A stretch of 64,000 nucleotides of DNA from Eledone cirrhosa (Eukaryota). Of this stretch, positions 6,045 through 61,100 are shown one piece after another. Positions within the stretch are counted from its first letter, which is position 1, and every line of letters starts with the position of its first letter. The notes beneath the pieces are model-generated. The model was not told the DNA's origin and searched no databases. It saw nothing but the letters and a program-made list of their open reading frames with translations. A program made the position numbers and the translations under genes. Where the stretch lies: contig OZ024741.1 of NCBI GenBank assembly GCA_964016885.1, positions 19,344,001-19,408,000 of the forward strand, read 5' to 3'.

Positions 6045-6192
6045 ATCTCATTTCTACAGCTGAGTAAACTGGAGCAACGGGAAATAAAGTGTCTTGCTCA
6101 AGGAAACAACACATCACCCAGTCCGAGAATTGAACTCACAACCTTTCGATTGCAAGCCCAATGCTTTAACCACTAAGCCATGCGCATTCACT
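6045..6192 (-). mobile_element. tRNA-derived SINE (family 2, CORE-like)
   Basis: Minus strand: tggcttagtggtt (A box), gagttcaattc (B box), ccttgagcaagacacttt core. Related to 33133-33250. Confidence 0.75.
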
Positions 6193-10100: not shown

Positions 10101-10520
10101 AGATATGAGAGAATGTCACCCAATGTGACAGGTTAAATAGTGATATGAGAGGGAGGCTGGGAGATGTGAGAGAATGTCACCTAATGTGTCAGGTTAAATA
10201 GTGATATGAGAGGGAGGTTGGGAGATATGAGGGAATGTCACCTAATGTGACAGGTTAAATAGTGATATGAGAGGTAGGTTGGGAGATATGAGAGAATGTC
10301 ACCTAATGTGACAGGTTAAATAGTGATATGAGAGGGAGGTTGGGAGATATGAGAGAATGTCACCTAATGTGACAGGTTAAATAGTGACATGAGAGGGAGG
10401 TTGGGAGATATGAGAGAATGTCACCCAATGTGTCAGGTTAAATAGTGATATGAGAGGGAGGTTGGGAGATATGAGAGAATGTCACCTAATGTGACAGGTT
10501 AAATAATGATATGAGAGGGA
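7120..10520. repeat. 61-bp minisatellite, about 56 copies
   Basis: Unit gagggaggttgggagatatgagagaatgtcacctaatgtgacag(a/g)ttaaatagtgatatga, highly homogeneous. Confidence 0.97.
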
Positions 10521-27519: not shown

Positions 27520-30370
27520 TGTTTCTTTATTAGCCACAGGGGCACAAAAGACGGGGACAAATACAAAGGGGGAAGTTTACATACAATAAAAACGTGTAAA
27601 ATGTTATCACAAATGTAATTTAAAAAGTTAGTCGATTTTCCCCAATAGGGGGAGACAGTTTATATGGGTAACACATAACCCCGAAAAAATGTGCAACCCT
27701 CGTCTCAAGGAGTACGAAGAGTTGGTACTGCTTTCCTCTCCTCCTCCTTTTCCTCAACCTACAGGCTGATATAGAGAGAAGGCCCATTCACTCGGGCCAT
27801 TCTCGCCACTTTCACCCACCTTTCATAAAACTTGCTGGGGTACAGCACCTCTCTCTCCATCCTGATTCTTCTTCCAAAGTGGTATTTGAAAAAAAGAATC
27901 AGTTGTTGGCAGGAGAGAAAGGTGTCTGACCTCAGCCCTTTCAACCTTGTCCACCATACAACCTCTTTCGCCATAGCTATAACACAAAAGAAAACCGCCT
28001 CTCCTTCATTTTTGAAGGAGGGTGGCGGTTTGATCATGACAATGGACTCGGTGGTCAACTGGATTGGTCTCACCCGCGACAATAGTCGTTCTACATAGCC
28101 CCACAGTGACGCCCGGGCAGTGTATGAATGCGTGCGCGACGGTTTCTTCGTCTCGCACGCACCTCGGACAGATCTTTTTTGCAGGGTCCCTGCCCGGGCG
28201 CCCATGTCTGTAGAGCTTGTCTCGAACTGGTAGAGCTCCTCGGTAGCACTGCCAGGCCAGGGACTTTTGGAAGTTGTCCATCGGTCCCGGGCGGAAGGTC
28301 CTACCGAACAGACTGGCCAGTTCATCTTCCTCTACGCCTAGAGTTTCACCGAACGCATCGTCGCACTTGCTGCGGATCAACCCTCTATAGAATGACGAAG
28401 TGGAGTCTCCACTGATCGCCGGGTCCGCCTGCCAGAGGGCTGTGAGCGCCTGAGCACATTCGATGTGCCAGTCGCCCATTTTCCTCGGTCTTTGCTTGAC
28501 CCAGGACTGCAGCTCGGTCAGCGAGACGAGTCGTGGGAAGGCTCGCCTCACAAACGGGGCCCACACCGGTTGTCCGGTGAGGAATACGTAGAGATGCCGC
28601 AGCCTGAGCGCGTGTTTGCGCATCGTCAACCACGGCATCCCCAGCCCTCCGTTAGAAGGGTGTTGGCAGCAGATGGATCTTCTCACCAAAGGAGCCAGCC
28701 TCTTCCAAAGGAATCGGAAGAGCGCGCGTTCCATTTTGGCGAGCGTTTTGGCTGGACACGGCACGACGGTCAAGCGGTAGTAGATGGCGGACGCTATAAA
28801 AGTGTTCGCCACCTCCGCTCGACCTTTCAAGGATAGTTTGCACTCGGCCCACTTCTGGGTGAGTGCAAACACCTTGGCCGTCACTTCGTTCCAGTTCTTC
28901 TCCACCTGGAGGTCCGGACCAAACCAGACCCCGAGCAGCTTTACCGGTCCTTCCGTCCAGCGTCCGACGACGCCATCGGAAGGCATCGGTTTGCCTCTCC
29001 ACGATCCGAGTTGCAAACCGATGGACTTGTCCTGCTTCAGCTTCGCTCCTGTGAAACTTTCGTATTCCTTCAGTAAGGTGGCGACTTCCTCGATTTGCGA
29101 GGCGCTCGACACCATTACTGCCACGTCGTCGGCGTAGGCCGACGCCGCTTTCCGCAGTCCCGGTTCCAGAGGGATGCCCTGCAATAGCTCCAACTTCCGC
29201 AGTAGTGGCTCGAGAGTCAGTACATACAGAAGGGAGGAGAGAGGGCATCCCTGTCGAATGGATCGCGTAATATGGAACGGCTCCGAGAGGTAGCCGTTCA
29301 CCTTGACCCTTGAGCAGATGTTGCTGTTGTGCATTGCAGCAATCCAGCCCCTGAACACGGGTCCGAAGCCTGCCGCCTCGAGCACCGCATCCAGGTAACG
29401 ATGGTCAACCCTATCGAAAGCCTTAGACTGATCCAAGTTGATCAGGGCCCCACCGAAGCTGGGTTTACACCCTACCCTCTCTATGATGTATCGCATGAGG
29501 TGGAGGTTGTCGCGTATGGACCTGGTCGGGATTGCGCATGCCCGCGCTTCTCCCACCAGGTTCTCGACGACAAGCGCCAGCCTCTTTGCCAACACCTTGG
29601 CCAAAATCTGTAACTCTGTGTTTAGCAGAGTTATGGGCCGGAAGTTGCCTATGTTATCCCCCTTATTCTCGTCCTTCCTGATTAGTGTGACCACGCCCCC
29701 GGTACAGAACTGGGAATTCTCCCCGTTCTGTTGCCAGTTGCAGTAGACCGCTTCCAGGAGACCGGAGAATAAGTCCGGCATTGCTACGTAAAATTCGTAG
29801 GGTAGACCGTCGAGACCTGGAGATTTGCGTTTGCCGCATTGGCTCAGCGCGTCCCCTATCTCAGTGGCTGAAATCGGCTTTTCGCAGAACTTCGCCTCGC
29901 TGTCCGAGAGTCGCGGTAGGCCGTCGAGGTATGGACCGATATCCATAGCCTCTCCCGGCACACCGTCCCCCCCCCGAACAGCTGAGCAAAGTGCCGCTGA
30001 AAAGCCGCACACATCTGCTTCGGCTCACGTATCACGCGTCCGTTTTGGTCCTTCAAAGACCGAATCGTGGACTTGTTGCCACTTTTTGCCTCCGTCACTC
30101 GGGCCCAGCTAACAGCTTTGGCTCCCTCGTTTCCCAGAGCACGTATTTTGTTTCAGACAACGCAGCCCTCGTGCTTTGCGTCGAAGAACTGGTCCAAGGC
30201 CGTTCTCGTTGCTAGCACGCTGGCTACGTTGCCACTTCTAATTGCCTCTTCTACTTTATCTACCAGTTCCTTCTCGGTTCTATTTCTATCTAACGCTAAT
30301 TCTTTACTAAAAACTATCGAGTCTAATCTAACTGCCCTCTCGAGAGAGTACCACCATCTGTTGTTGACAA
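27520..30370 (-). mobile_element. 5'-truncated Tx1/L1-clade LINE in (GATA)n
   Basis: GC-rich block ending in AATAAAgaaacatatctatctat on the minus strand. Both flanks contain atagatag(a/c)cagatatatagata. Confidence 0.9.
28006..30012 (-). CDS. Non-LTR reverse transcriptase (Tx1-like ORF2 C-terminal part; frameshifted near 28100 and 30010)
   Basis: KSPGLDGLPYEFY, NFRPITLLNTE, LDQSKAFDRVDH, RQGCPLS, AYADD, GGLGMP and zinc knuckle CPRC..EETVAHAFIHC. The C-terminus continues in the 27759-28325 frame. Confidence 0.92.
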   Translation of the reverse strand: MCGFSAALCSAVRGGDGVPGEAMDIGPYLDGLPRLSDSEAKFCEKPISATEIGDALSQCGKRKSPGLDGLPYEFYVAMPDLFSGLLEAVYCNWQQNGENSQFCTGGVVTLIRKDENKGDNIGNFRPITLLNTELQILAKVLAKRLALVVENLVGEARACAIPTRSIRDNLHLMRYIIERVGCKPSFGGALINLDQSKAFDRVDHRYLDAVLEAAGFGPVFRGWIAAMHNSNICSRVKVNGYLSEPFHITRSIRQGCPLSSLLYVLTLEPLLRKLELLQGIPLEPGLRKAASAYADDVAVMVSSASQIEEVATLLKEYESFTGAKLKQDKSIGLQLGSWRGKPMPSDGVVGRWTEGPVKLLGVWFGPDLQVEKNWNEVTAKVFALTQKWAECKLSLKGRAEVANTFIASAIYYRLTVVPCPAKTLAKMERALFRFLWKRLAPLVRRSICCQHPSNGGLGMPWLTMRKHALRLRHLYVFLTGQPVWAPFVRRAFPRLVSLTELQSWVKQRPRKMGDWHIECAQALTALWQADPAISGDSTSSFYRGLIRSKCDDAFGETLGVEEDELASLFGRTFRPGPMDNFQKSLAWQCYRGALPVRDKLYRHGRPGRDPAKKICPRCVRDEETVAHAFIHCPGVTVGLCRTTIVAGETNPVDHRVHCHDQTATLLQK

Positions 30371-37830: not shown

Positions 37831-37869
37831 GTAATCTGAGTTTTTCGAATATTAATAATAATATTCGAT

Positions 37870-38470
37870 TCGTTTGCAATTAGGCAAACAGCCTCATTTA
37901 AGCCATTTAAACATTAAAAACCCTAGCATAGTTTTCGAGGCTACGCTTTGTGATAAAGAAGTCCTTTCTTTGTTACACGATTGCGATGCCCATACCCTTT
38001 ATAAGTTCTGTAAAGATATAATAGAAACCTTTCATGAACTAAGACTGAAGACCATTGTAAATATTAAACTCTCTAATGCCAATTTCCTTGACGTAAACTT
38101 AGAATTGGTCACAGGCTCTTATAATGTTTATCATGAATCCAATGAAGAACTTAAAAAAATCTAGACTCTACTATTGGACGTAGTATTTCTAATCTGTCAT
38201 CATCTGAGGGGATACTTAATAAGGCAGCACCTGCAACAGGGCTCTACAAGAAAGAGTCTTCAAAGATAAAATTATGCACACACCTAGCACCCTGTACTTC
38301 ACATAACAGCACTCAAAATAGGAATAGAAACATTACCTGGTTCAACTCTCCCATTTCCCTAAACGTAAAATCTAACGTAGGTAAGGAGTTTTAAAGTCCA
38401 AAGTCTGATAGATAAGTATCCCCTTTCCAACACAATTATAGATAAGAATCAAGTAGGCATTCTGGTAAAA
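37870..38470 (+). pseudogene. Highly decayed PLE RT-thumb fragment
   Basis: ANFLDVNLELVTGSYNVYH and downstream RNRNITWFNSP match the 3372-4439 frame (NFLDISLNLDTGLYYPYH; IWYNAP). Confidence 0.7.
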
Positions 38471-38609
38471 TCAATATATATATATATGTATGTAAAAGGT
38501 AAACAGAAATAACAACACAATCGGTACAGTATATGGAAGGGATATATTAGGTTAAGGCTTGAAATAGAAGGTAGAAGGTCTTAATATATATATATATATA
38601 TATATATAT

Positions 38610-40085
38610 AGTAATAATAATAAATTTGAAGACTAAAATCCAAAGAGGGCTCGATAAGGATAAATATATATCAAATATATAAGAACCGTAGAGCAAATAT
38701 TTATTAAAATAACAGATTAAAGTTTAAGCAAAGAATCGGTGCTTTCACCCTTAACGGGATCTTCTGAAACTAACAAAGTCAATCTGTAAACGCAGGACTG
38801 CATATTTCAAAAAAACGTTGCAACCGGAGGAAGACAGGAAGACGATACTTTGGTTCGTGGTAACGTTCGCTGGCAAAGAACGGGAAAAAACGAATATAAT
38901 TGTTTCTACTTTTGGCACAAGGCCAGCAATTACCCAGTGTATTACTGGTACTTTATTTTATCGACCCCATAAGGATGAAAGGCAAAGTTAACCTCGGCGG
39001 GATTTGAACTCAGAATGGCAAGGGCCGTAACTCTATGCGTCAAAGCATGGCGTCCGACCCTCTACCGATACTGCCAATCCACTGGCCACTGGAAAAAACG
39101 AATATAATACGTCATTAATAGGAGCGGTGAAAAACAATTACGCGCAAAGACAGAACCACGTTTATGGTATAAAAGAGGTCATAGACTAATGTTCTCTTAG
39201 GTGGTGCATAGAGACGTTCTCTGGCAATGAACGAAAAAAAAAACGAAGCTAAGAACAATAGCACGCAAAGACAAAACCACGTAAATGGTATAGCAGAAGT
39301 CGTAGACTAAAATTCTAACTAGGAGACCGAATGAATCTCCGCTACAGAGTTAAGAACAAAGTAAATAAATACAATACAGAAGTAATAGAAATAAATAAAT
39401 ACATACACGCAAACAAATACGTACATACACAAGCATACGCAAAAACTACCATAGGTAAACAAAACCACGCACATATAAATATGTGTGTGTGTGTATGCGT
39501 GTATACAAATAAATAAATAATTATATAAACGTATATAAATAAATAAATACGTATATAACAAGCGCACACACATACCCACATGTAAATACACGAATGTTCG
39601 GAGACGTAAGTCAACCAAAACATGAAGTACGCATATACACACGCCCACCATACGTACGAACCTGCATACTCACACGGTTAGAATTTTAGTCTACGACTTC
39701 TGCTATACCATTTACTCGGTTTTGTCTTTGCGTGCTATTGTTCTTAGCTTCGTTTTTTTTCGTTCATTGCCAGAGAACGTCTCTATGCACCACCTAAGAG
39801 AACATTAGTCTACGACCTCTTTTATACCATAAACGTGGTTCTGTCTTTGCGCGTAATTGTTTTTCACCACTCCTATTAATGACGTATTATATTCGTTTTT
39901 TCCCGTTCTTTGCCAGCGAACGTTACCACGAACCAAAGTATCGTCTTCCTGTCTTCCTCCGGTTGCAACGTTTTTTGAAATATCCAGTCCTGCGTTTACA
40001 GATTGACTTTGTTAGTTTCAGAAGATCCGGTTAAGGGTGAAAGCAGCGATTCTTTGCTTAAACTTTAATCTGTTATTTTAATAAA
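38610..40085 (-). mobile_element. ORF-less PLE tail fold-back (family of 13306/16097)
   Basis: 38697-39320 and 39677-40085 are near-identical inverted arms once the SINE in the left arm is removed. (TA)n flanks. Confidence 0.85.
38901..39090 (-). mobile_element. SINE family 1 copy with 18-bp TSD
   Basis: TSD ggaaaaaacgaatataat at 38883-38900 and 39091-39108. The empty site is visible in the mate arm at about 39885-39903. Confidence 0.9.
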
Positions 40086-40100
40086 TATATATATATATAT

Positions 40101-41028
40101 AAAGAATTAATATCTAGTAACATATATATATACATACAGATGCATATCAATGCTAGCAAATATATAGGTTTTGTCTTAGTAACTTTGTGGTTCAATGCAT
40201 GGGGTTTCAGAACAATAATATGAGAGACGTAAAATAAGAAAATTATAAAATTAACTTACTTACTAAAATTTCACGATGGCTAGGAATTCAGTCCACGCTT
40301 TGCTCTTTTCTATCCACTGAATTATTTTTGAATAAGTTTCCAGAGTCCACGCTTTGCCTGGATACTTAGCTGAGAATAGTCTTCCCTGACGACGAAATGA
40401 TTCTCTATATTTTCTTCGGAAAGTATATTTATTCCATTTCAGAAACTAATTAGTTGGGAGTGAAATTTTAGTAAGTAAGTTAATTTTATAATTTTCTTAT
40501 TTTACGTTTCTCATATTATTGTTCTGCAACCCCATGCATTGAACCACAAAGTTACTAAGACAAAACCTATATATTTGCTGGCATTGATATGCATCTGTAT
40601 GTATATATATGTTACTAGATAATAATTCTTTATAATTATCTCCAAATTATTTGTCGAGCAATATTGGCCAAGACTGCTGCTATGGTAGCAAGCAGGCCGC
40701 TGTCTTATTAACAAACCACTTTCCACTGATTGACCTCGATGTCACGTGATTGATTCTTTTTGAATTTGCCACCGACGCAGAGGCAGTGATTTTCTCAATG
40801 GCTAGGAATTCAGTCCACGCTTTGCTATTTTCTATCCACTGAATTATTTTTGAATAAGTTTCCAGAGTCCACGCTTTGCCTGGATACTTAGCTGAGAATA
40901 GTCTTCCCTGACGACGAAATGATTCTCTATATTTTCTTCGGAAAGTATATTTATTCCATTTCAGAAACTAATTAGTTGGGAGTGAAATTTTAGTAAGTAA
41001 ATTAATTTTATAATTTTCTTATTTTACG

Positions 41029-41036
<8 letters not shown>
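40101..41036 (+). mobile_element. Non-autonomous HHR element: 522-bp partial tandem with inverted 5' segment
   Basis: 40276-40515 is repeated at 40798-41036. 40101-40274 is the reverse complement of 40460-40632. (TA)n flanks. Confidence 0.85.
40381..40460 (+). ncRNA. Type I hammerhead ribozyme (second identical copy 40903-40982)
   Basis: cttcc CTGACGA c gaaatg...catttc a GAAA ctaattag TT gggag; palindromic stem III. Confidence 0.75.
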
Positions 41037-41094
<58 letters not shown>

Positions 41095-41306
41095 CGTTTC
41101 TGAATTTGTTTAGCAAGATTCTTTATCTGAAATCGTGTGTTGAAACCGATATTGTTATACTTTGGGAGGGTCATGTTGCCAATAAGAAACACACGCACCA
41201 GTTGCTTTCACTTCAATTTATTATATATTTATAAATTTACAAATTTATAAATTTATAAATTTCTGGTTGGTTGGTTGGTTCCACAACCAGATAGTTGTTT
41301 ATATAT

Positions 41307-41351
41307 AGTCATAGTTCTTTCGTCACACACTCTGTGACCTCTTCAGTGACT
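41307..41351 (-). ncRNA. Minimal type I hammerhead ribozyme in PLE 3' tail
   Basis: agtca CTGAAGA g gtcac agagtgt gtgac GAAA g aa c TA tgact. Confidence 0.75.
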
Positions 41352-41551
41352 GGGGACTCCTTTCTTTGTTTCTGTGCCTCTCCTTTGTTCTGTCCTACGC
41401 CATTTTGTTTCTGTGTGTGTGTTGTGTGCTCAGTCTGCGCATGCGCCACATCCGGGTGTCTGTGTGTGTTTATGTTGATTTATCTATTTGTTTATTTACA
41501 TGTTACTGGTTGGTTGTTTGTTCTATGTGTGTGTGTGTTTTCATTTTGTCC

Positions 41552-42447
41552 TTAATTGTAAGTTGTGATGTTGCTGTTCCACTCATATTTTCTATTTAAT
41601 TTTGGTTGTAATTCTTTTATGTTTATTGCCTCTGTAATTTGTATAAACATTGCGTCTTTTCTGTGTGTAGATTCTATTTTTATTTCTATGTTCTCTAATT
41701 TACCCTTGTGTTCTATCTTAGCATGTTGGTAGAGTACAGATGATTCTTTATTATCTTGAAGGTCTCGCCAGTGTTCATTTATCCGTTCCCCTACACTACG
41801 AGCTGTCTCACCTATGTACACTATATTTTTGTCTCTACATTGTCCTTCGGTACATCTTATGCTATACACTACATTTCTAGTTTTACAGTTAATATGGGGG
41901 CTTATTTTACAGGTTATACATTTCTTATCTATACATGAGGGTCTTTGAAAAGGGTATGTCTTGCTAATAAGTGTTTTTACGGAGGTACTTGGTCTTTCTA
42001 CTATCTTAATATTGAGTTTATGTTTATTTAGGGCCCTTCTAAATTTGTAAGCTAGTTCACCTCTAGGGGTTGTATCGATGAACATTACACTCTGGTATTT
42101 ATTGCTATCATACCATGAGTTTATTCTATTAGCCTTGTTCCTAGTTCTTTCTATCCTATTCCAAAATTTGCTTCTATACAAGGGGCAGGTCCCATTTATG
42201 TCATTATTTACCATTTTTTCCCATTTGGTTCTGGCTCCTCTATACACTCTGATTCTATCTCTCTGATTGTAGCCAGAGAACTGCATACGGTGGATGAAGT
42301 GTTGTATGTGTCTCTCTAGTTCTTCGGGGTTGCACATGCGGGACACATTTCACATCACCCGTACCAAATCCGCAATCAGTATGTTGATTTTGGTATGTTC
42401 CGAAATGGCCGAGTTTCGGTGGATCAGATGTTTGGAAGTCATGGGTT
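41552..42447 (-). pseudogene. 5'-truncated PLE thumb + GIY-YIG endonuclease (Naiad-like)
   Basis: KPMTSKHLIHRNSA..LVRVM*NVSR..MQFSGY..PLYRSKFWNR..WY..TPRGEL..C..KKCITC..NCKTRNVVYSIRC..YIGETARSVGERINEH..EAINIKELQPKLNRKYEW. One TGA at 42350-42352. Confidence 0.88.
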
Positions 42448-45400
42448 TGGCTAGATTTTTCTTTTGCAATATATATACAGATGTGTTGGTATCTGTGTTT
42501 CATCACATACATATTAATTTATACACTGCTCAGGGGGTATTTTTCCTACTTCGAGCTGATTTCATTGTAAAAGAATTCATTACCTTAATAATTTTAACTG
42601 CACCTAGTTTGAGCTGCAAGCCGCCTCATATATACGACTGTTATTTCTAGCAGTACGGTTATGAGACTAGTTAGATACTGTAAAGCCATGTGCGTCACGC
42701 AGTCTTTTCAATTATTTAGAAGTGAAGCATATCAATTTGTCTCTGGAGGTTTACTGAGGAGAGCGGGACATGATATTCCTACACTTATTTAACTCGAAAC
42801 ATATTTGGATCTTAAAGTCTAAACTTATCTACGGAACAGGTTTGATTTTGAAATTTAAATGTGTCTAAACATCACGGCCTCTTGGCAATACAGTTCGTCT
42901 CCGTTGATTTATTATTTTAAATCGATATGGACAAACTGTAGTATAATAATTAATATACTTCAATCTGGCTAGATTTTTCTTTTGCAATATATATACAGAT
43001 GTGTTGGTATCTGTGTTTCATCACATACATATTAATTTATACACTGCTCAGGGGTTATTTTTCCTACTTCGAGCTGATTCCATTGTAAAAGAATTCATTA
43101 CCTTAATAATTTTAACTGCTCCTAGTTTGAGCTGCAAGCCGCCTCATATATACGACTGTTATTTCTAGCAGTACGGTTATGAGACTAGTTAGATACTGTA
43201 AAGCCATGTGCGTCACGCAGTCTTTTCAATTATTTAGAAGTGAAGCATATCAATTTGTCTCTGGAGGTTTACTGAGGAGAGCGGGACATGATATTCCTAC
43301 ACTTATTTAACTCGAAACATATTTGGATCTTAAAGTCTAAACTTATCTACGGAACAGGTTTGATTTTGAAATTTAAATGTGTCTAAACATCACGGCCTCT
43401 TGGCAATACAGTTCGTCTCCGTTGATTTATTATTTTAAATCGATATGGACAAACTGTAGTATAATAATTAGTATACTTCAATCTGGCTAGATTTTTCTTT
43501 TGCAATATATATACAGATGTGTTGGTATCTGTGTTTCATCACATACATATTAATTTATACACTGCTCAGGGGGTATTTTTCCTACTTCGAGCTGATTCCA
43601 TTGTAAAAGAATTCATTACCTTAATAATTTTAACTGCTCCTAGTTTGAGCTGCAAGCCGCCTCATATATACGACTGTTATTTCTAGCAGTACGGTTATGA
43701 GACTAGTTAGATACTGTAAAGCCATGTGCGTCACGCAGTCTTTTCAATTATTTAGATGTGAAGCATATCAATTTGTCTCTGGAGGTTTACTGAGGAGAGC
43801 GGGACATGATATTCCTACACTTATTTAACTCGAAACATATTTGGATCTTAAAGTCTAAACTTATCTACGGAACAGGTTTGATTTTGAAATTTAAATGTGT
43901 CTAAACATCACGGCCTCTTGGCAATACAGTTCGTCTCCGTTGATTTATTATTTTAAATCGATATGGACAAACTGTAGTATAATAATTAGTATACTTCAAT
44001 CTGGCTAGATTTTTCTTTTGCAATATATATACAGATGTGTTGGTATCTGTGTTTCATCACATACATATTAATTTATACACTGCTCAGGGGGTATTTTTCC
44101 TACTTCGAGCTGATTCCATTGTAAAAGAATTCATTACCTTAATAATTTTAACTGCTCCTAGTTTGAGCTGCAAGCCGCCTCATATATACGACTGTTATTT
44201 CTAGCAGTACGGTTATGAGACTAGTTAGATACTGTAAAGCCATGTGCGTCACGCAGTCTTTTCAATTATTTAGATGTGAAGCATATCAATTTGTCTCTGG
44301 AGGTTTACTGAGGAGAGCGGGACATGATATTCCTACACTTATTTAACTCGAAACATATTTGGATCTTAAAGTCTAAACTTATCTACGGAACAGGTTTGAT
44401 TTTGAAATTTAAATGTGTCTAAACATCACGGCCTCTTGGCAATACAGTTCGTCTCCGTTGATTTATTATTTTAAATCGATATGGACAAACTGTAGTATAA
44501 TAATTAGTATACTTCAATCTGGCTAGATTTTTCTTTTGCAATATATATACAGATGTGTTGGTATCTGTGTTTCATCACATACATATTAATTTATACACTG
44601 CTCAGGGGGTATTTTTCCTACTTCGAGCTGATTCCATTGTAAAAGAATTCATTACCTTAATAATTTTAACTGCTCCTAGTTTGAGCTGCAAGCCGCCTCA
44701 TATATACGACTGTTATTTCTAGCAGTACGGTTATGAGACTAGTTAGATACTGTAAAGCCATGTGCGTCACGCAGTCTTTTCAATTATTTAGATGTGAAGC
44801 ATATCAATTTGTCTCTGGAGGTTTACTGAGGAGAGCGGGACATGATATTCCTACACTTATTTAACTCGAAACATATTTGGATCTTAAAGTCTAAACTTAT
44901 CTACGGAACAGGTTTGATTTTGAAATTTAAATGTGTCTAAACATCACGGCCTCTTGGCAATACAGTTCGTCTCCGTTGATTTATTATTTTAAATCGATAT
45001 GGACAAACTGTAGTATAATAATTAGTATACTTCAATCTGGCTAGATTTTTCTTTTGCAATATATATACAGATGTGTTGGTATCTGTGTTTCATCACATAC
45101 ATATTAATTTATACACTGCTCAGGGGGTATTTTTCCTACTTCGAGCTGATTCCATTGTAAAAGAATTCATTACCTTAATAATTTTAACTGCTCCTAGTTT
45201 GAGCTGCAAGCCGCCTCATATATACGACTGTTATTTCTAGCAGTACGGTTATGAGACTAGTTAGATACTGTAAAGCCATGTGCGTCACGTAGTCTTTTCA
45301 ATTATTTAGATGTGAAGCATATCAATTTGTCTCTGGAGGTTTACTGAGGAGAGCGGGACATGATATTCCTACACTTATTTAACTCGAAACATATTTGGAT

Positions 45401-47185
45401 CTTAAAGTCTAAACTTATCTACGGAACAGGTTTGATTTTGAAATTTAAATGTGTCTAAACATCACGGCCTCTTGGCAATACAGTTCGTCTCCGTTGATTT
45501 ATTATTTTAAATCGATATGGACAAACTGTAGTATAATAATTAGTATACTTCAATCTGGCTAGATTTTTCTTTTGCAATATATATACAGATGTGTTGGTAT
45601 CTGTGTTTCATCACATACATATTAATTTATACACTGCTCAGGGGGTATTTTTCCTACTTCGAGCTGATTCCATTGTAAAAGAATTCATTACCTTAATAAT
45701 TTTAACTGCTCCTAGTTTGAGCTGCAAGCCGCCTCATATATGCAACTGTTATTTCTAGCAGTACGGTTATGAGACTAGTTAGATACTGTAAAGCCATGTG
45801 CGTCACGCAGTCTTTTAAATTATTTAGAAGTGAAGCATATCAATTTGTCTCTGGAGGTTTACTGAGGAGAGCGGGACATGATATTCCTACACTTATTTAA
45901 CTCGAAACATATTTGGATCTTAAAGTCTAAACTTATCTACGGAACAGGTTTGATTTTGAAATTTAAATGTGTCTAAACATCACGGCCTCTTGGCAATACA
46001 GTTCGTCTCCGTTGATTTATTATTTTAAATCGATATGGACAAACTGTAGTATAATAATTAGTATACTTCAATCTGGCTAGATTTTTCTTTTGCAATATAT
46101 ATACAGATGTGTTGGTATCTGTGTTTCATCACATACATATTAATTTATACACTGCTCAGGGGGTATTTTTCCTACTTCGAGCTGATTCCATTGTAAAAGA
46201 ATTCATTACCTTAATAATTTTAACTGCTCCTAGTTTGAGCTGCAAGCCGCCTCATATATGCAACTGTTATTTCTAGCAGTACGGTTATGAGACTAGTTAG
46301 ATACTGTAAAGCCATGTGCGTCACGCAGTCTTTTAAATTATTTAGAAGTGAAGCATATCAATTTGTCTCTGGAGGTTTACTGAGGAGAGCGGGACATGAT
46401 ATTCCTACACTTATTTAACTCGAAACATATTTGGATCTTAAAGTCTAAACTTATCTACGGAACAGGTTTGATTTTGAAATTTAAATGTGTCTAAACATCA
46501 CGGCCTCTTGGCAATACAGTTCGTCTCCGTTGATTTATTATTTTAAATCGATATGGACAAACTGTAGTATAATAATTAGTATACTTCAATTTGGCTAGAT
46601 TTTTCTTTTGCAATATATATACAGATGTGTTGGTATCTGTGTTTCATCACATACATATTAATTTATACACTGCTCAGGGGGTATATTTCCTACTTCGAGC
46701 TGATTCCATTGTAAAAGAATTCATTACCTTAATAATTTTAACTGCTCCTAGTTTGAGCTGCAAGCCGCCTCATATATGCGACTGTTATTTCTAGCAGTAC
46801 GGTTATGAGACTAGTTAGATACTGTAAAGCCATGTGCGTCACGCAGTCTTTTAAATTATTTAGAAGTGAAGCATATCAATTTGTCTCTGGAGGTTTACTG
46901 AGGAGAGCGGGACATGATATTCCTACACTTATTTAACTCGAAACATATTTGGATCTTAAAGTCTAAACTTATCTACGGAACAGGTTTGATTTTGAAATTT
47001 AAATGTGTCTAAACATCACGGCCTCTTGGCAATACAGTTCGTCTCCGTTGATTTATTATTTTAAATCGATATGGACAAACTGTAGTATAATAATTAGTAT
47101 ACTTCAATCTGGCTAGATTTTTCTTTTGCAATATATATACAGATGTGTTGGTATCTGTGTTTCATCACATACATATTAATTTATA
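42448..47185 (+). repeat. 518-bp tandem array (9.15 units), one hammerhead per unit; retrozyme-like
   Basis: Landmark ctggaggtttactgagg at 42743, 43261, 43779, 44297, 44815, 45333, 45851, 46369 and 46887 (exact 518 period). Only a few substitutions between units. Confidence 0.95.
42747..42826 (+). ncRNA. Type I hammerhead ribozyme, first of nine (every 518 bp)
   Basis: aggttta CTGAGGA gag...ctc GAAA c atatttggatcttaaa g TC taaactt; GUC at 42817-42819. Stem I extends as tctg/cgga past a bulge. Confidence 0.85.
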
Positions 47186-47461
47186 TATTTATATATATAT
47201 ATATATTCCAACGTAGAACACTTAACTCATGTGATGCTATTCATTTGCAGTGTCATTAATACATCTATCATAATAAAACTGTCGTTTTAACCGCAATGAT
47301 CTCTCATCTGCGATGTTTACACACATTTATTTGCTCTTTATTTCATCTGTTTTAGCAAGCAACTCTTATTTGTTGTCTTCAAAGTAAATTTGATGCTGTC
47401 GGGTACCATCAAACTGGAAAACCACCCAATAAACTGATATATTGCTCGGTTTCTACATGCA

Positions 47462-48055: not shown

Positions 48056-48058
<3 letters not shown>

Positions 48059-48295
48059 CAGATAATAAATTTGAAGACTAAAATCTAAAGAGGGCTCGAT
48101 AAGGATAAATATATATCAAATATATAAGAACCGTAGAGCAAATATTTATTAAAATAACAGATTAAAGTTTAAGCAAAGAATCGCTGCTTTCACCCTTAAC
48201 GGGATCTTCTGAAACTAACAAAGTCAATCTGTCAGTTTCAGAAGATCCCGTTAAGGGTGAAAGCAGCGATTCTTTGCTTAAATTTTAATCTGTTA

Positions 48296-48303
<8 letters not shown>
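48056..48303. mobile_element. Short fold-back of the variant-HHR PLE tail
   Basis: 48148-48216 is inverted at 48234-48302. (TA)n flanks. Confidence 0.85.
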
Positions 48304-50309: not shown

Positions 50310-50677
50310 TACGATATTAAATAAATGGAAACTATATTTATAAAACCATATTTATTTCATTATATATATTTCAGGGATATCATATTAAAAATATGGTATG
50401 CCTTCATCAGACAAAATACAATATAAACAGTCTTATAAATAGATAGATTTGACATACCTTACAACTTCAACTTCCATTTAAAAAGTTGATTTGGAAGTTG
50501 AAGTTGTAAATGGAAGTTGAAGTTGTAAGGTATGTCAAATCTATCTATTTATAAGACTGTTTATATTGTATTTTGTCTGATGAAGGCATACCATATTTTT
50601 AATATGATATCCCTGAAATATATATAATGAAATAAATATGGTTTTATAAATATAGTTTCCATTTATTTAATATCGTA
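50310..50677. mobile_element. Perfect about 170-bp-arm palindrome with an HHR in each arm (50353-50418 -, 50569-50634 +)
   Basis: tattttgt CTGATGA agg..catatt ttt aatatg..cct GAAA tatata TA atgaaata. Confidence 0.85.
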
Positions 50678-52004: not shown

Positions 52005-53570
52005 GGGTGTGTATGATTGTGTATTGAAGATTATATTAATAAGAGGAATTCCAACTTTGTCTGATTTACTCGTTTTATTTACAATCCTTTAAAATATATA
52101 TAATGGTATTATAATGAAATAGTATGGTAGAATATTAAATTCTAAGTGTTAATTGAACAAGTACTTTCATGCTTTCGCAATCTTCAGGTTCATGATATGT
52201 GGTGACAGTCGAGTTTGCAATTTTCAACTGTAATGAGATGGGTAAATTTCCTACCTTTTATACATTTTATACAGAGAAAAGTGGCTCCAGAATGCAAAGC
52301 CCTGTAAACTGTATTTCGACCAATCAGTGTGTAGTTTCACTGAATTACTACAGCTGATTGGTTTAAGCGTCACGGCTGGTTGAGCATGCTAACGACCAAT
52401 AGTCATACCCAACGTATCAATTGTTTTGCTTTTTGAAATGATGAAAATAGCATTTTCTATTAATCATCACCATCAACATCACTTTTATTATTATTATTAT
52501 TGTTGTTGTTGTTGTTATTGTTGTTGTTAGTGGTCGTGGTCATAGTGGTAGTAGAAATAATACCCCTAGGCGTTATTATTGTTCATTTAGCTTGGGTTTG
52601 AATTTATCAATAAAATTCTTTTCTTTGATTTTTCTCTTGATTTCACTTGGGCTGTGTAATTTGTAGAATGGGAATATTATAAATATTCCCTAACCACATG
52701 TTGCCAGGTGGCCGCTTAGGGGTATCTGACGGACATTTGGGTCTCTGATTTGTTGACGGTGTACCCGTGCACGTTCCAATAGTGCATTTCCAGTTTGACC
52801 GACATATAGTTCTTCACAATTCGGGCATTTAATGCAGTAAATTAGATTTCTGCTTTTGCAGTTCATATTTGCATTTGGGAATATTTTTCCAGTTTTTGTT
52901 TTCATATATTGACCGGCGTGTATGGATTGACATGTGCCGCATCGATTATCATTGCATTTAGATACAGTGAATGATTGGTCTTTGTTGTTAAGGTCAAACT
53001 TTGCTTTTGTTAGCAATTGCTTCAAATTTTTTGGCTGTCTTTTACTAAGAGTCAAAGATCGATCTGTGATTAAGCCTTTTAATTCATTACTTTGAGCAAT
53101 GATCGGTAGGTTTGCTTTGGCAGTGTTGAATATATTTTGGTGACATGGGTTGTGTGTCATTATAAATGGTATGACCAGTTCTTGGTTTCTTCTTCCTTGG
53201 GTTGTTCTAAGTTGTTGTATAGGTATTTTTATAAAATTAAACCAATCAGCTGTAGTAATTCAGTGAAACTACACACTGATTGGTCGAAATACAGTTTACA
53301 GGGCTTTGCATTCTGGAGCCACTTTTCTCTGTATAAAATATATAAAAAGTAGGAAATTTACCCATCTCATTACAGTTGAAAATTGCAAACTCGACTGTCA
53401 CCACATATCATGAACCTGAAGATTGCGAAAGCATGAAAGTACTTGTTCAATTAACACTTAGAATTTAATATTCTATCATACTATTTCATTATAATACCAT
53501 TATATATATTTTAAAGGATTGTAAATAAAACGAGTAAATCAGACAAAGTTGGAATTCCTCTTATTAATAT
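52005..53570 (-). mobile_element. 5'-truncated Neptune-like PLE with inverted pseudo-LTRs, each carrying an HHR (52154-52192 -, 53411-53449 +)
   Basis: About 52033-52366 is inverted at about 53238-53570. HHR: tgaac CTGAAGA t tgc gaaa gca t GAAA gtac TT gttca. Confidence 0.9.
52577..53235 (-). pseudogene. PLE linker Zn-finger + GIY-YIG endonuclease fragment
   Basis: THNP..KRQPKNLKQLLTKA..KCNDNRCGTC..MNCKSRNLIYCIKCPNCEELYVGQTG..ERARVHRQQI..HLATCG*..FPFYK..KEKNFIDKFKPKLN. Premature TAG at 52690. Confidence 0.88.
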
Positions 53571-54754: not shown

Positions 54755-56968
54755 GTCAGTATACCTGAGCTGGGTAGTGGGGTGGTGTTGAGGGTTGGTA
54801 TACCTGAGCTGGGTAGTGGGGTGGTGTTGAGGGTTGGTATACCTGAGCTGGGTAGTGGGGTGGTGTTGAGCGTCAGTATACCTGAGCTGGGTAGTGGGGT
54901 GGTGTTGAGGGTTGGTATACCTGAGCTGGGTAGTGGGGTGGTGTTGAGGGTCAGTATACCTGAGATGGGTAGTGGGGTGGTGTTGAGGGTTGGTATACCT
55001 GAGCTGGGTAGTGGGGTGGTGTTGAGCGTCAGTATACCTGAGCTGGGTAGTGGGGTGGTGTTGAGGGTTGGTATACCTGAGCTGGGTAGTGGGGTGGTGT
55101 TGAGGTTTGGTATACCTGAGCTGGGTAGTGGGGTGGTGTTGAGGGTCAGTATACCTGAGCTGGGTAATGGGGTGGTGTTGAGCGTCAGTATACCTGAGCT
55201 GGGTAGTGGGGTGGTGTTGAGGGTTGGTATACCTGAGCTGGGTAGTGGGGTGGTGTTGAGGGTTGGTATACCTAGCTGGGTAGTGGGGTGGTGTTGAGGG
55301 TCAGTATACCTGAGCTGGGTAGTGGGGTGGTGTTGAGGGTTGGTATACCTGAGCTGGGTAGTGGGGTGGTGTTGAGGGTCAGTATACCTGAGCTGGGTAG
55401 TGGGGTGGTGTTGAGGGTTGGTATACCTGAGCTGGGTAGTGGGGTGGTGTTGAGGGTTGGTATACCTGAGCTGGGTAGTGGGGTGGTGTTGAGGGTCAGT
55501 ATACCTGAGCTGGGTAGTGGGGTGGTGTTGAGGGTCAGTATACCTGAGCTGGGTAGTGGGGTGGTGTTGAGGGTCAGTATACCTGAGCTGGGTAGTGGGG
55601 TGGTGTTGAGCGTCAGTATACCTGAGCTGGGTAGTGGGGTGGTGTTGAGGGTCAGTATACCTGAGCTGGGTAGTGGGCTGGTGTTGAGCGTCAGTATACC
55701 TGAGCTGGGTAGTGGGGTGGTGTTGAGGGTTGGTATACCTGAGCTGGGTAGTGGGGTGGTGTTGAGGGTTGGTATACCTGAGCTGGGTAGTGGGGTGGTG
55801 TTGAGGGTCAGTATACCTGAGCTGGGTAGTGGGGTGGTGTTGAGCGTCAGTATACCTGAGCTGGGTAGTGGGGTGGTGTTGAGGGTTGGTATACCTGAGC
55901 TGGGTAGTGGGGTGGTGTTGAGGGTTGGTATACCTGAGCTGGGTAGTGGGGTGGTGTTGAGGGTTGGTATACCTGAGCTGGGTAATGGGGTGGTGTTGAG
56001 GGTCAGTATACCTGAGCTGGGTAGTGGGGTGGTGTTGAGGGTTGGTATACCTGAGCTGGGTAGTGGGGTGGTGTTGAGGGTCAGTATACCTGAGCTGGGT
56101 AGTGGGGTGGTGTTGAGGGTTGGTATACCTGAGCTGGGTAGTGGGGTGGTGTTGAGGGTTGGTATACCTGAGCTGGGTAGTGGGGTGGTGTTGAGGGTCA
56201 GTATACCTGAGCTGGGTAGTGGGGTGGTGTTGAGGGTTGGTATACCTGAGCTGGGTAGTGGGGTGGTGTTGAGGGTTGGTATACCTGAGCTGGGTAGTGG
56301 GGTGGTGTTGAGGGTCAGTATACCTGAGCTGGGTAGTGGGGTGGTGTTGAGGGTCAGTATACCTGAGTTGGGTAGTGGGGTGGTGTTGAGGGTTGGTATA
56401 CCTGAGCTGGGTAGTGGGGTGGTGTTGAGGGTTGGTATACCTGAGCTGGGTAGTGGGGTGGTGTTGAGGGTCAGTATACCTGAGCTGGGTAGTGGGGTGG
56501 TGTTGAGGGTTGGTATACCTGAGCTGGGTAGTGGGGTGGTGTTGAGGGTCAGTATACCTGAGCTGGGTAGTGGGGTGGTGTTGAGGGTTGGTATACCTGA
56601 GCTGGGTAGTGGGGTGGTGTTGAGGGTCAGTATACCTGAGCTGGGCAGTGGTGTAGTGTTGAGGGTCAGTATACCTGAGCTGGGTAGTGGGGTGGTGTTG
56701 AGGGTTGGTATACCTGAGTTGGGTAGTGGGGTGGTGTTGAGGGTTGGTATACCTGAGCTGGGTAGTGGGGTGGTGTTGAGGGTCTGTATACCTGAGCTGG
56801 GTAGTGGGGTGGTGTTGAGGGTCAGTATACCTCAGCTGGGCAGTGGGGTGGTGTTGAGGGTTGGTATATCTGAGCTGGGTAGTGGGGTGGTGTTGAGGGT
56901 CAGTATACCTGAGCTGGGTAGTGGGGTGGTGTTGAGGGTCAGTATACCTGAGCTAGGCAGTGGGGTGA
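54755..56968. repeat. 39-bp G-rich minisatellite, about 57 copies
   Basis: Unit tatacctgagctgggtagtggggtggtgttgagggt(tgg/cag). Confidence 0.97.
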
Positions 56969-58129
56969 GCTCCTGCTGGACTACAAAATGACTGAAATAT
57001 GTTGTTTATCACCTCTTCCCCCCCCCCATGTGTCTCCCTTCGTGGCACTGGCTTCACCAAACTGGGTTGGGTGTGAAAGTGAGAGCTCAGTACTATAACC
57101 AATGTAATGCTTGGATTACACTATCCTAAAGTACATATACTTGTGGCTGGGCACCACTTGTGGAACCAAACACCTAATGGAACTCCGTTGAAATGAACTT
57201 ACACCATGAATTCCTTCAATGGAGCCAGCTCAACCCCTCCCCCACCAGGTGGAGCCAGCTCAACCCCTCACCACCAGGTGAACTCCACCACAAATACAAG
57301 TACAAGCAATAGTACATCACTGCAATACTGGTTCACAGCCAAGTGTTGTTTCATGTTGAGATGATAGTACACGAGTATTTATATCAGTAGTATTTGTACT
57401 ACAGATGACATTGTGTATAGTTTTAGTAATAACAACACTGGTGGGTATTAATACCTTGATAGTACTTTGGAAGGTAGTGGTGGTGGCGGTGAGGAGCTGC
57501 TGCTACTACTGCTGCTGATCTCATGTGACGTCTTACACAGAGATTTCACCTATTTTGATGTTGAACGCTCTACAAATTAGTCAATTAACCTCACCGATAA
57601 TGCGAACAACAATAATAATAATAGCAATAATAATGATGATGAAGATGATGATGATGATGATGATTATGAAGATTCCATTTTTATTTATTGTTACTACGGA
57701 GGTGGGGGAGAGAGTTTCTGGTGTTAGAGATGGAGACATTGGGAAAACTGCGAGGTATTTCTAAGAGAGTTATTAGACATATCAGGTGTTAACGTTGTTT
57801 GCATAATTGGTTATATGGGGAGGGGGGGGGGGTTACTGGGCAGAAAGGAGGAGGTCATCATCATCACCGTCATCATCATTATTGTTGTAGTTGTTGTTGT
57901 AGTAGTTGTTGTTGTTGTAGTTGTTGTAGTTGTTGTTGTTGCTGTAGTTGTTGTTGATTTTGTTGTATGCCTTCCCTGCATCACCAAGCGTAACACTGTT
58001 TATTTTGGGAACGTGAAATGTTGTTATTGTTGTTATCGTTGTTATTGTTGTTATTGCTGTTGTTGTTGTTATTGCTTTGGTTTCCTTTCTCTTTTCCTTT
58101 AAATTTGTATTGAGAGAACATTGTCTAAT

Positions 58130-61100
58130 AGATGTAGTTTCAATATGTTGTTAGATGTGTAGTTGTTAGATGTGTAGTTGTTAGATGTGTAGTTGTAAGA
58201 TGTGTAGTTTCAATATGTTGTTTATATGTGTAGTTGTAAGATGTGTAGTTACAACATGTTGTTTATATGTGTAGTTGTAAGATGTGTAGTTTCAATATGT
58301 TGCTTATATGTGTAGTTGTAAGATGTGTAGTTACAACATGTTGTTTATATGTGTAGTTGTAAGATGTGTAGTTTCAATATGTTGCTTATATGTGTAGTTG
58401 TAAGATGTGTAGTTTCAACATGTTGTTTATATGTGTAGTTGTAAGATGTGTAGTTGCAATATGTTGTTTATATGTGTAGTTCTAAGATGTGTAGTTTCAA
58501 TATGTTGTTTATATGTGTAGTTGTAAGATGTGTAGTTGCAATATGTTGTTTATATGTGTAGTTGTAAGATGTGTAGTTTCAATATGTTGTTTATATGTGT
58601 AGTTGTTAGATGTGTAGTTTCAATAGGTTGTTTATATGTGTAGTTGTTAGATGTGTAGTTTCAAGATGTTGTTTATATGTGTAGTATCAATATGTTGTTT
58701 ATATGTGTAGTTGTAAGATGTGTAGTTTCAATATGTTGTTTATATGTGTAGTTGTTAGATATGTAGTATCAATATGCTGTTAGATGTGTAGTTTCAATAT
58801 GTTGTTCATATGGGTAGTTGTTAGATGTGTAGTGTCAATATGCTGTTAGATGTGTAGTTTCAATATGTTGTTTATATGTGTAGTTGTAAGATGTGTAGTT
58901 GTTAGATATATAGTTTCTATACATTGTTTATATGTGTAGGTGTTAGATGTGTAGTTTCAACATGTTGTTTATATGTGTAGTTGTTAGATGTGTAGTTTCA
59001 ATATGTTGTTTATATGAGTAGTTGACAGATGTGTAGTTTCAATATGTTGTTTGTATGTGTAGTTGTCAGATGTGTAGTTTCAATATGTTGTTTATATGTG
59101 CAGTTGTATGATGTGTAGTTTCAATATGTTGTTTATATGTATAGTTGTAAGATGTGTAGTTTCAACATGTTGTTTATATGTGTAAGATCTGTTGTAAGAT
59201 GTGTAGTTTCAACATGTTGTTTATATGTGTAGTTGTAAGATGTGTAGTTTCAATATGTTGTTTATATGTGTAGTTGTTAGATGTGTAGTTTCAATATGTT
59301 GTTTATATGTGTAATTGTAAGATGTGTAGTTTCAATATGTTGTTTATATGTATAGTTGTATGATGTGTAGAATCAATATGTTGTTAGATGTGTAGTTTCA
59401 ATATGTTGTTTATATGTGTAGTTGTAAGATGTGTAGTTTCAATATGTTGTTTATATGTGTAGTTGTTAGATGTGTAGTTGTAAGATGTTGTTTATATGTG
59501 TAGTTGTTTGATGTGTAGTTTCAATACGTTGTTTATATGTGTAGTTGTTAGATGTGTAGTTTCAATATGTTGTTTATATGTGTAGTTGTATGATGTGTAG
59601 TATCAATATGTTGTTAGATGTGTAGTTTCAATATGTTGTTTATATGTGTAGTTGTAAGATGTGTAGTTTCAATATGTTGTTTATATGTGTAGTTGTAAGA
59701 TGTGTAGTTTCAATATGTTGTTTATATGTGTAGTTGTTAGACGTGTAGTTGTAAGATGTTGTTTATATGTGTAGTTGTTTGATGTGTAGTTTCAATATGT
59801 TGTTTATATGTGTAGTTGTATGATGTGTAATATCAATATGTTGTTTACATGTGTAGTTGTAAGATGTGTAGTTGTTAGATGTATAGTTTCTATATGTTGT
59901 TTATATGTGTAGTTGTTAGATGTGTAGTATCAATATGTTGTTTATACATGTAGTTGTTAGATGTGTAGTTTCAATATGTTGTTTATATGTGTAGTTGTAA
60001 GATGTGTAGTATCAATATGTTGTTTATATGTGTAGTTGTTAGATGTGTAGTTTCAATACGTTGTTTATATGTGTAGTTGTATGATGTGTAGTATCAATAT
60101 GTTGTTAGATGTGTAGTTTCAATATGTTGTTTATATGTGTAGTTGTATGATGTGTAGTATCAATATGTTGTTAGATGTGTAGTTTCAATATGTTGTTTAT
60201 ATGTGTAGTTGTTAGATGTGTAGTTGTAAGATGTTGTTTATATGTGTAGTTGTTTGATGTGTAGTTTCAATACGTTGTTTATATGTGTAGTTGTTAGATG
60301 TGTAGTTTCAATATGTTGTTTATATGTGTAGTTGTATGATGTGTAGTATCAATATGTTGTTAGATGTGTAGTTTCAATATGTTGTTTATATGTGTAGTTG
60401 TAAGATGTGTAGTTTCAATATGTTGTTTATATGTGTAGTTGTAAGATGTGTAGTTTCAATATGTTGTTTATATGTGTAGTTGTTAGACGTGTAGTTGTAA
60501 GATGTTGTTTATATGTGTAGTTGTTTGATGTGTAGTTTCAATATGTTGTTTATATGTGTAGTTGTATGATGTGTAATATCAATATGTTGTTTATATGTGT
60601 AGTTGTAAGATGTGTAGTTGTTAGATGTATAGTTTCTATATGTTGTTTATATGTGTAGTTGTTAGATGTGTAGTATCAATATGTTCTTTATACATGTAGT
60701 TGTTAGATGTGTAGTTTCAATATGTTGTTTATATGTGTAGTTGTAAGATGTGTAGTATCAATATGTTGTTTATATGTGTAGTTGTTAGATGTGTAGTTTC
60801 AATATGTTGTTTATATGTGTAGTTGTATGATGTGTAGTATCAATATGTTGTTAGATGTGTAGTTTCAATATGTTGTTTATATGTGTAGTTGTATGATGTG
60901 TAGTATCAATATGTTGTTAGATGTGTAGTTTCAATATGTTGTTTATATGTGTAGTTGTTAGATGTGTAGTTGTAAGATTTTGTTTATATGTGTAGTTGTT
61001 AGATGTGTAGTTTCAATATGTTGTTTATATGTGTAGTTGTTAGATGTATAGTTTCAATATGTTGTTTATATGTGTAGTTGTTAGATGTGTAGTTTCAATA

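Follow-up and report, generated by a model that had tools for sequence, protein, structure and literature searches.

We analysed a 64,000-nt stretch of Eledone cirrhosa DNA (GenBank assembly GCA_964016885.1, contig OZ024741.1, positions 19,344,001 to 19,408,000 of the forward strand; this whole stretch is referred to as the window) that contains a tandem array of a 518-nt repeat, each unit bearing a hammerhead ribozyme motif. The array belongs to a dispersed repeat family, here family A, and is joined head to head to a truncated Penelope-like element (PLE); the two sequences, called arms below, run outward into (TA)n tracts. An earlier note on this DNA, made from the sequence alone, had described the array and had missed the PLE joined directly to unit 1. 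The features of the locus are listed in window coordinates (RT stands for reverse transcriptase, ORF for open reading frame, and pseudo-LTR or pLTR for pseudo-long terminal repeat).

41035-41092, no strand: (TA)n tract (AT x 29), outer end of the PLE arm and left part of the likely target.
41093-42447, minus strand: 5'-truncated copy of a young Neptune-type PLE; its 3' end is the downstream ('long', tailed) end of the PLE family, whose upstream ('short') end maps to 41149 in this arm.
41307-41351, minus strand: PLE-type hammerhead of minimal form, located within the PLE pseudo-LTR and predicted to be cut between 41312 and 41311.
41552-42349, minus strand: remnant of the C-terminal PLE ORF, with RT thumb, C-x4-C-x2-C linker and GIY-YIG endonuclease with CCHH-type residues.
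42448-42451, no strand: head-to-head junction, 4 nt common to the PLE (as continued in its siblings) and the start of unit 1, with no TA spacer.
42448-47185, plus strand: retrozyme arm, family A, nine full 518-nt units plus 76 nt, from period analysis and Tandem Repeats Finder (TRF).
42459-42575, plus strand: 12-bp helix (unit positions 12-23 with 117-128), present in every unit and enclosing the short start site; a candidate RT-recruiting structure.
42747-42826, plus strand: type I hammerhead motif of unit 1, recurring every 518 nt; the predicted cut of the last copy falls after 46963.
47110-47185, plus strand: terminal partial unit, stopping at unit position 76, the upstream ('short') 3' end of family A.
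47186-47207, no strand: (TA)n tract, outer end of the retrozyme arm.

The array measures 4738 nt, or nine units and 76 nt (9.15 units; 9.1 copies by TRF). Compared base for base with the sequence 518 nt further on it is 99.62% identical, and the other periods between 510 and 525 give 24-31%. Each unit departs from the majority line at one to four sites, units 3-5 are identical, and the longest stop-to-stop frame within one unit spans 72 amino acids. These values confirm the head-to-tail array of about 9.15 units with few differences and no meaningful ORF that had been reported, and a non-LTR retrozyme is expected to consist of such tandem, non-coding units a few hundred bases long. The further suggestion that the unit is unusually long is not upheld: retrozyme units of 51-972 bp and arrays of up to 300 units have been published (bioRxiv 10.64898/2026.07.22.740005), so that neither 518 nt nor nine copies is out of the ordinary. 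Contigs from three sequencing runs of one sample cover the PLE and the retrozyme; none spans the whole stretch, and they are hence silent on the junction and the number of units.

All nine units carry the hammerhead core, with CUGAGGA at 42754+518k, GAAA at 42796+518k and GUC, and a predicted cut after 42819+518k. By pattern, stem I has 7 bp, stem II has 3 bp around a long loop and stem III is weak in every unit. A search with this motif-plus-stems pattern found it in the unit and in none of 2000 dinucleotide shuffles on either strand, which bears out the claim of an intact type I motif (CUGAGGA/GAAA/GUC) throughout; a complete type I motif thus stands in at least two consecutive units, as in non-LTR retrozymes. 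The Infernal check that had been proposed was negative. At the gathering threshold, Rfam gave no hammerhead in the whole window and only one tRNA-like match, and at E values up to 10 it gave no hammerhead in two units. In an 88-nt piece the enforced hammerhead core folds at -1.0 kcal/mol and the free fold, which is not a hammerhead, at -10.0 kcal/mol; the published retrozyme survey demands a hammerhead fold below -5 kcal/mol (bioRxiv 10.64898/2026.07.22.740005). The monomer as a whole folds more stably than its shuffles (z -3.4), with the hammerhead hidden in its best fold, and the predicted hammerhead fold is thus marginal. The quasi-palindromic loop of stem III, to which the earlier note had drawn attention, pairs with itself as a duplex at -6.0 kcal/mol, in keeping with that suggestion.

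Unit position 315 (window 42762+518k), in the second base pair of stem II, is hypervariable among family A loci. Copies within a locus disagree there in 6/35 cases, compared with an average of 1.25% (corrected p about 0.002), and G, T and C are all observed. Three states occur within one array of 23.7 units elsewhere in the genome, and all nine units of the window retain A. The hypervariability could reflect misreading of a modified base by the RT.

Outside the window, family A is abundant. The best 40 of 1048 first-look candidates were scored, and these matches are 97-98% identical and lie on many contigs. In the whole genome, a 32-nt piece of the hammerhead has 265 exact matches, and a 27-nt piece close to the 3' end has 767. 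We studied 117 distinct loci besides the window, in overlapping sets of which 38 were best-scoring, 54 were found by a hammerhead pattern and 51 by a 3'-end pattern. The two pattern sets were drawn from the first listed contigs, and the 3'-end set carries no bias as regards the cut site. Family A copies end at unit position 76 ('short') or at about 140-149 ('long', ~145), where they run into (TA)n, and their 5' ends vary by truncation. The genome search that the earlier note had called for therefore yields dispersed copies, at these 117 other loci, though not in variable phase as had been imagined, since only the 5' ends vary and the 3' ends are fixed at two sites. The family is dispersed and mobile, and none of the 117 loci has an LTR layout (primer-binding sites and polypurine tracts were not searched separately).

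That the array is an ordinary satellite or an assembly artefact, with a hammerhead motif arisen by chance, is accordingly very improbable. The identity of units 3-5 means that the exact number of units could be mis-assembled, Rfam is without a match, and local expansion resembles the behaviour of satellites; against this, hundreds of dispersed copies with retrotransposition ends exist, the motif occurs in 0/2000 shuffles, and the differences among the units are ordered. As the earlier note had expected, the array is of the non-LTR retrozyme kind, a tandem element that encodes no protein, carries a hammerhead and is dispersed, rather than a satellite of a single locus.

Head-to-head pairs were found 68 times among the 117 loci; in 53 of them the end of each arm is canonical, and in the other 15 one end is non-canonical. 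Within the canonical pairs the rule is strict: 52 of 53 combine a short with a long end, one is short+short and none is long+long (p 6e-15 against 0.5). Unpaired arms (n=57) have a canonical end in 53 cases. Subfamily alleles agree between paired arms at 374/379 informative calls (61 pairs), and random re-pairing in 1000 runs gave an agreement of 61% (maximum 73%); tandem copies inside one arm agree at 630/638 calls. In 12/52 pairs each arm includes sequence that the other lacks, and there the second arm cannot have been copied from the first by folding back. Most homotypic head-to-head junctions overlap by 0-7 nt, and family arms most often stop at their 5' side near unit positions 1-25 and 495-518 (28/82 arms). 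Based on these counts, we consider it probable that copying is primed at both ends of the broken target. Two observations weigh against this: the remaining 40/52 pairs are compatible with fold-back copying, and the short site is where both arms end in the 23.7-unit array, which is formed by a 522-nt variant of family A at G000:C2:407494600-407507000 (L172-L173) and has blocks duplicated at a distance of about 11 units, although that array lies outside the short+long count.

Fixed 3' ends with an optional tail, 5' truncation and an inverted 5' partner are the marks of a PLE-mobilised element, and an inverted 5' copy with a tail at one end only has been described as a PLE hallmark (PMC8557442). 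The (TA)n target is common to family A and the young PLE resident in the window. This insertion footprint, with its TA targets, two ends and head-to-head pairs, points to a PLE enzyme, as the earlier note had supposed, and we hold both the retrozyme class of the array family and its dependence on a PLE with high confidence. A search for scars of RNA editing found no strand bias, with 46 A>G and 48 T>C among the rare changes (p 0.35), and the changes common to all copies of a locus (A>G 11, T>C 8, of 35) are too few to interpret.

The left neighbour is itself a young element. Its arm is 97-99% identical to its best siblings and has the same 3' end (best 40 of 1537 candidates scored), it differs from them at five private sites in 1355 nt (0.37%, a lower bound), and a stop codon ahead of its ORF remnant is absent from 19/19 siblings. 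Two siblings have long stop-free frames, of 927 amino acids (L071) and 1035 amino acids (L072), consistent with a single ORF that combines an RT and, at its C-terminus, an endonuclease of the GIY-YIG type. Pieces of L071 match RVT_1 (E 7e-4, below the cut-off) and GIY-YIG (E 6e-5, above the cut-off); the whole 1035-residue frame gave nothing in Pfam, and a sequence search of the PDB gave nothing. The protein has 129 homologues, the best being 68% identical, from Octopus vulgaris. A CX2-5CxxC linker and a CCHH motif, as defined in PMC8557442, are present in the translation, and by these motifs, rather than by an RT tree, the left arm would be of the Neptune type. The PLE family inserts into TA and ends at either of two 3' sites spaced by 56 nt; the hammerhead upstream of these, read from sequence and fold, has a 5-bp stem I, one extra base after the core and a one-pair stem III. 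Long and short ends are combined in 10/11 loci with both arms canonical (20 distinct loci, the main arm having been selected for its long end).

The sibling L071 (G000:C5, 29398800-29407000) is a full-length 4.4-kb copy with a short stutter of its first bases at the junction. It starts within 1 nt of the position matching the predicted hammerhead cut. This single case suggests a linear, partly cut RNA template and gives one hint that cleavage by the ribozyme of the PLE takes place.

The two arms of the window end at the long site (PLE) and the short site (retrozyme), and both outer ends lie in TA. The simplest reading of the junction between them would be one integration event that copied two RNAs, and on balance we lean towards a single co-insertion of the PLE copy and the retrozyme arm. 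Two further direct joins of family A or C sequence (family C is a sister family described below) to the pLTR of the same PLE occur at L062 and L054. Several findings pull the other way. Similarity of the unit to the PLE pLTR is not significant (73/300 shuffles score as well for family A and 32/300 for its sister B), and descent of the unit from that pLTR is thus not shown. Family A arms also join a Naiad-type element directly (L057, L133), and a family C arm joins a third PLE family (L257). Other mixed head-to-head loci break the short+long rule, L054 being short+short, L057 apparently long+long and L133 complex, so that the agreement seen in the window could be due to chance. Finally, PLEs and retrozymes crowd the same TA tracts and 15/53 unpaired arms lack TA at the 5' side, so that a later deletion could yield the same junction.

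These points lend some weight to the alternative that PLE and retrozyme were inserted separately, back to back, in one TA tract, the spacer being lost through a target deletion at the second insertion or a later microhomology-mediated one; the enzyme that moved the retrozyme could then not be read from the junction. Independent insertions often lie side by side with TA between them (L010, L011, L063, L119, L131), direct joins to unrelated PLE clades and violations of the short+long rule are on record in the mixed loci just given, and microhomology-mediated deletions of Penelope copies have been described (PMC3846280). The long+short arrangement, a junction that resembles the homotypic ones, outer ends at canonical sites in TA on both sides, the youth of both parts and an arm that stops in the commonest 5' stop region (28/82 arms) speak against separate insertions, which we regard as a serious though weaker candidate. 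It is rather unlikely, by comparison, that the unit is the pseudo-LTR of an undiscovered autonomous PLE, or that the Naiad-type family instead of the Neptune-type neighbour is the true driver. Such an origin could appeal to the 24/57 frog retrozyme families that match known elements, mostly PLE termini (bioRxiv 10.64898/2026.07.22.740005), to the Naiad-type joins at L057 and L133, to the preference of Naiads for (TA)n as well (PMC8557442), and to L257, where the endonuclease end of another PLE lies upstream of a family C arm in the same sense. Searches for a driver, in which the best 40 candidates were scored with the Neptune-type and not the Naiad protein as query, gave no Neptune-type protein match beyond the 5' end of the 15 unpaired A arms without TA; protein matches were present at 7/55 loci of families B and C, about 375 nt or more from the arms. 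The 3' regions of six copies from a second Neptune-like family showed no similarity to the unit, and a pseudo-LTR relation was not found, in that similarity to the two Neptune-like families was not significant.

Further composite loci were observed among these insertions. At L054:2041-3219 a single arm consists of PLE pLTR, family C and family A sequence, all in one orientation, as two template jumps would give; L062 and L110 have comparable tandem joins between PLE pLTR sequence and family A or B; and at L257:1994-2760 the family C arm is joined via a short palindrome to the 3' end of the third PLE family in the same sense.

Returning to co-insertion, the explanation that we find best for the locus as a whole, and reasonably likely, is a PLE-copied retrozyme family that was co-inserted with a PLE and expanded locally. 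The PLE endonuclease would cut both strands of a TA tract, and each DNA end would then be extended from one of two internal start sites for reverse transcription, which lie about 69 nt from each other in the RNA. The two cDNAs would stop at variable points and be joined 5' to 5' via a few bases of microhomology. Both arms would usually copy the same RNA or the same source; in the window, one arm may have been copied from the PLE's own RNA at the long site and the other from retrozyme RNA, uncut at the hammerhead, at the short site. The original retrozyme arm would have measured at least 594 nt (one unit plus 76), and unequal exchange would then have yielded most of the nine units.

The differences among the units bear on that last step. 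Unit positions 101A and 301G occur in 9/9 units and at 0/39 other loci, and 7G and 141A in 9/9 units and at one locus each; a 20-nt pattern with 301G has nine matches in the genome, all within the array of the window. Derived changes are nested, with 262C in units 1-6, 274T in units 3-6, 187G in units 7-9 and 189A in units 7-8, and since they mark neighbouring blocks they indicate local duplication or conversion. In two other long arrays (L061, about 7 units, and the 23.7-unit array at G000:C2 407.49-407.51 Mb) changes are likewise common to blocks of units. Arms of the unbiased set (n=82) have a median length of 285 nt and a maximum of 1973 nt, and an exponential fit to these lengths gives about 3e-6 for 4738 nt. 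Unequal exchange is a route by which tandem arrays grow. The published retrozyme survey proposes local amplification after insertion and states unequal exchange as the route of growth (bioRxiv 10.64898/2026.07.22.740005). Growth to nine units by local duplication is thus well supported in our judgement, with two reservations: the 4.4-kb arm of L071 indicates that the enzyme copies far more than the exponential fit implies, and root-to-tip change of the units is about 1%, compared with the 0.37% private change of the PLE arm, so that some fixed changes may come from the template RNA.

The earlier note had instead supposed that a self-cleaved 518-nt monomer was circularised and that a PLE RT went around the circle about nine times, writing the array in one pass. 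Much would fit such an origin: a hammerhead motif in every unit, a monomer more stable than its shuffles, arms that read past the cut site, agreement among the tandem copies within arms, and circles demonstrated for coral, mussel and axolotl retrozymes (PMC7229834). In addition, some of the fixed private changes may derive from one template, and later gene conversion could blur a one-pass array. What one pass should leave, though, is identical units with scattered private errors, not nested block changes private to the locus; moreover, typical arms are under 2 kb, family C builds multi-unit arms with a broken core, and 8/9 frog dimers failed to cleave in vitro (bioRxiv 10.64898/2026.07.22.740005). 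A single rolling pass is therefore an improbable source of the nine units. It is only this one-pass origin that is disfavoured, and not a circle as the template of the family.

As to the template itself, arms meet the cut site 61 times, stop there twice and read through it 59 times; a pile-up of 5' ends at the cut was not found, with 2/82 arms ending within 368-380. Linear monomers cut at the hammerhead would stop arms at unit position 373, and since arms do not stop there, the template should be an uncut multimer or a closed circle. We favour the uncut linear multimer by a modest degree, with a religated circle somewhat behind it; a circle would account for the strict pairing and the common alleles no less well than a linear RNA, which limits this preference.

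The hammerhead is, in addition, poorly kept within and beyond family A. GUU replaces GUC in 12/39 family A units. Sister family B, of about 551 nt and 72% identity, keeps the core in 32/34 aligned copies, but with GUU and a mismatched stem I. Sister family C, of 551 nt and about 70% identity, lacks the CUGA core and the closing pairs in 28/28 aligned copies; it is nonetheless young, with arms of up to 1433 nt (2.6 units) and short+long pairs at 10/23 loci. Across families A-C the hammerhead stems decay rather than co-vary, changes on both sides of a stem being confined to a single column of stem II in family B and to two PLE rows that are poorly aligned. Given that arms stop at the cut in 2/61 encounters and that family C is mobile with a broken core, hammerhead cleavage is likely dispensable for mobility, judging from the copies compared. 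Conservation is higher in the 12-bp helix around the short start site than in the ribozyme: the helix is kept in 12 sequences of families A-C, 8/12 pairs being unchanged in all, and changes on both sides occur in two columns, one of them broken in family C, with weak statistics as only three lineages are compared. We infer that this helix may recruit the RT. A purified PLE protein nicks and extends both strands and starts at two internal RNA sites, with no need for hammerhead cleavage in vitro (PMC11167929).

Taken furthest, the locus could be the fossil of one Penelope integration complex that copied its own mRNA from one DNA end and the retrozyme RNA from the other, and that would name the mover, reveal two independent primings, assign recruitment to the helix and leave the hammerhead as a dispensable relic. 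We put this complete form forward as tentative.

Metazoan non-LTR retrozymes (PMC7229834; bioRxiv 10.64898/2026.07.22.740005) resemble family A in having tandem units that are AT-rich, do not code for protein and each contain a single type I hammerhead, in their dispersal as monomers to long arrays and in their co-occurrence with PLEs. They differ in that cleavage and circles have been published for them, whereas family A is known from its sequence and no pLTR link was found for it; such a link is not universal, a relation to PLE pseudo-LTRs being present in 24/57 frog retrozyme families (bioRxiv 10.64898/2026.07.22.740005). In most of the metazoan retrozyme circles of PMC7229834 the ribozyme is not hidden, unlike in the best fold of the monomer of the window. 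Fixed, paired start sites, head-to-head fusion with a PLE and active sisters with decayed hammerheads, all present here, do not appear in the available parts of these accounts, and the survey in bioRxiv 10.64898/2026.07.22.740005 sampled no mollusc. Neptune-type PLEs (PMC8557442, PMC3846280) share 5' truncation, partial tandems, an inverted 5' copy, a tail at one end, microsatellite targets and a hammerhead in the terminal repeat, but the repeat described here has no ORF. Hydra PLEs lack CCHH according to PMC8557442, unlike the left arm with its CX2-5CxxC linker and CCHH-type residues. The two ends of family A are spaced by about 69 nt (56 in the PLE and about 80-90 in B and C), which exceeds the published PLE tail of 30-40 nt. 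Head-to-head copies are explained by self-priming in PMC3846280, whereas 12/52 pairs here cannot be fold-back copies.

The Poseidon element PAc of Anolis, studied in vitro (PMC11167929), comes close, with two internal start sites downstream of the hammerhead, an AT-rich target, cutting and extension of both strands and no need for cleavage; that study observed no difference between the start sites as to strand and does not deal with pairing, whereas here the two ends of an insertion use different sites in 52/53 pairs and the RNA is a non-coding passenger. Elements of Chlamys such as MRC1 (PMC8557442) are likewise non-autonomous PLE partners with multicopy head-to-tail insertions, but they are similar to their autonomous partner at the 3' end, whereas the 518-nt unit is unlike the PLEs with which it was compared. 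By its sequence features the array would behave like a non-autonomous PLE partner and would qualify as a metazoan non-LTR retrozyme. A literature search retrieved no paper on cephalopod retrozymes, strict end pairing or PLE-retrozyme fusions, although supplements and subscription papers may hold such data.

Other repeats surround the locus. A Naiad-type PLE is represented at 38584-40085 and 48056-48300 by 3' pieces, parts of which are inverted and which have two alternative 3' ends, both in TA; for this family the best 40 of 2563 candidates were scored, and siblings have long frames upstream. A more decayed RT remnant at 37862-38394 is one that we take from its motifs to be Naiad-like. A large inverted repeat at 40040-41030, with two near-identical frames of 60 and 95 amino acids in opposite sense, adjoins the left TA tract. 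A head-to-head pair of a different hammerhead-bearing repeat, with an 8-bp stem I on each strand, lies between TA tracts at 50361-50626, and another GIY-YIG PLE remnant, 30% identical to the protein of the left arm, at 52741-52992 on the minus strand. Strongly skewed satellites occupy 7123-10520 (61 nt x 56), about 54900-57000 (a G-rich repeat of about 41 nt) and 58147-64000 (a 41/123-nt array that reaches the end of the window). A tRNA-like match just over the Rfam cut-off at 6119-6182 (minus strand) is probably the head of a short interspersed element (SINE), and a GC-rich region (56-58%) at about 27950-30050 looks like a possible fragment of a long interspersed element (LINE) on the minus strand.

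The copying of animal retrozymes by PLEs from RNA circles has been proposed, not shown (PMC7229834; bioRxiv 10.64898/2026.07.22.740005), and how the inverted ends of PLEs form is open (PMC8557442, PMC3846280). On both questions family A offers tests that can be counted in a genome: two start sites, one per end; arms drawn from one source; no stop at the ribozyme cut; and sister families that are active although their ribozymes have decayed. From the window comes a named candidate enzyme, of which copies that look intact exist in the genome, so that the reaction could be reconstituted in vitro on the model of the anole work. A further lesson of the window is that long hammerhead arrays need not be rolling-circle products.

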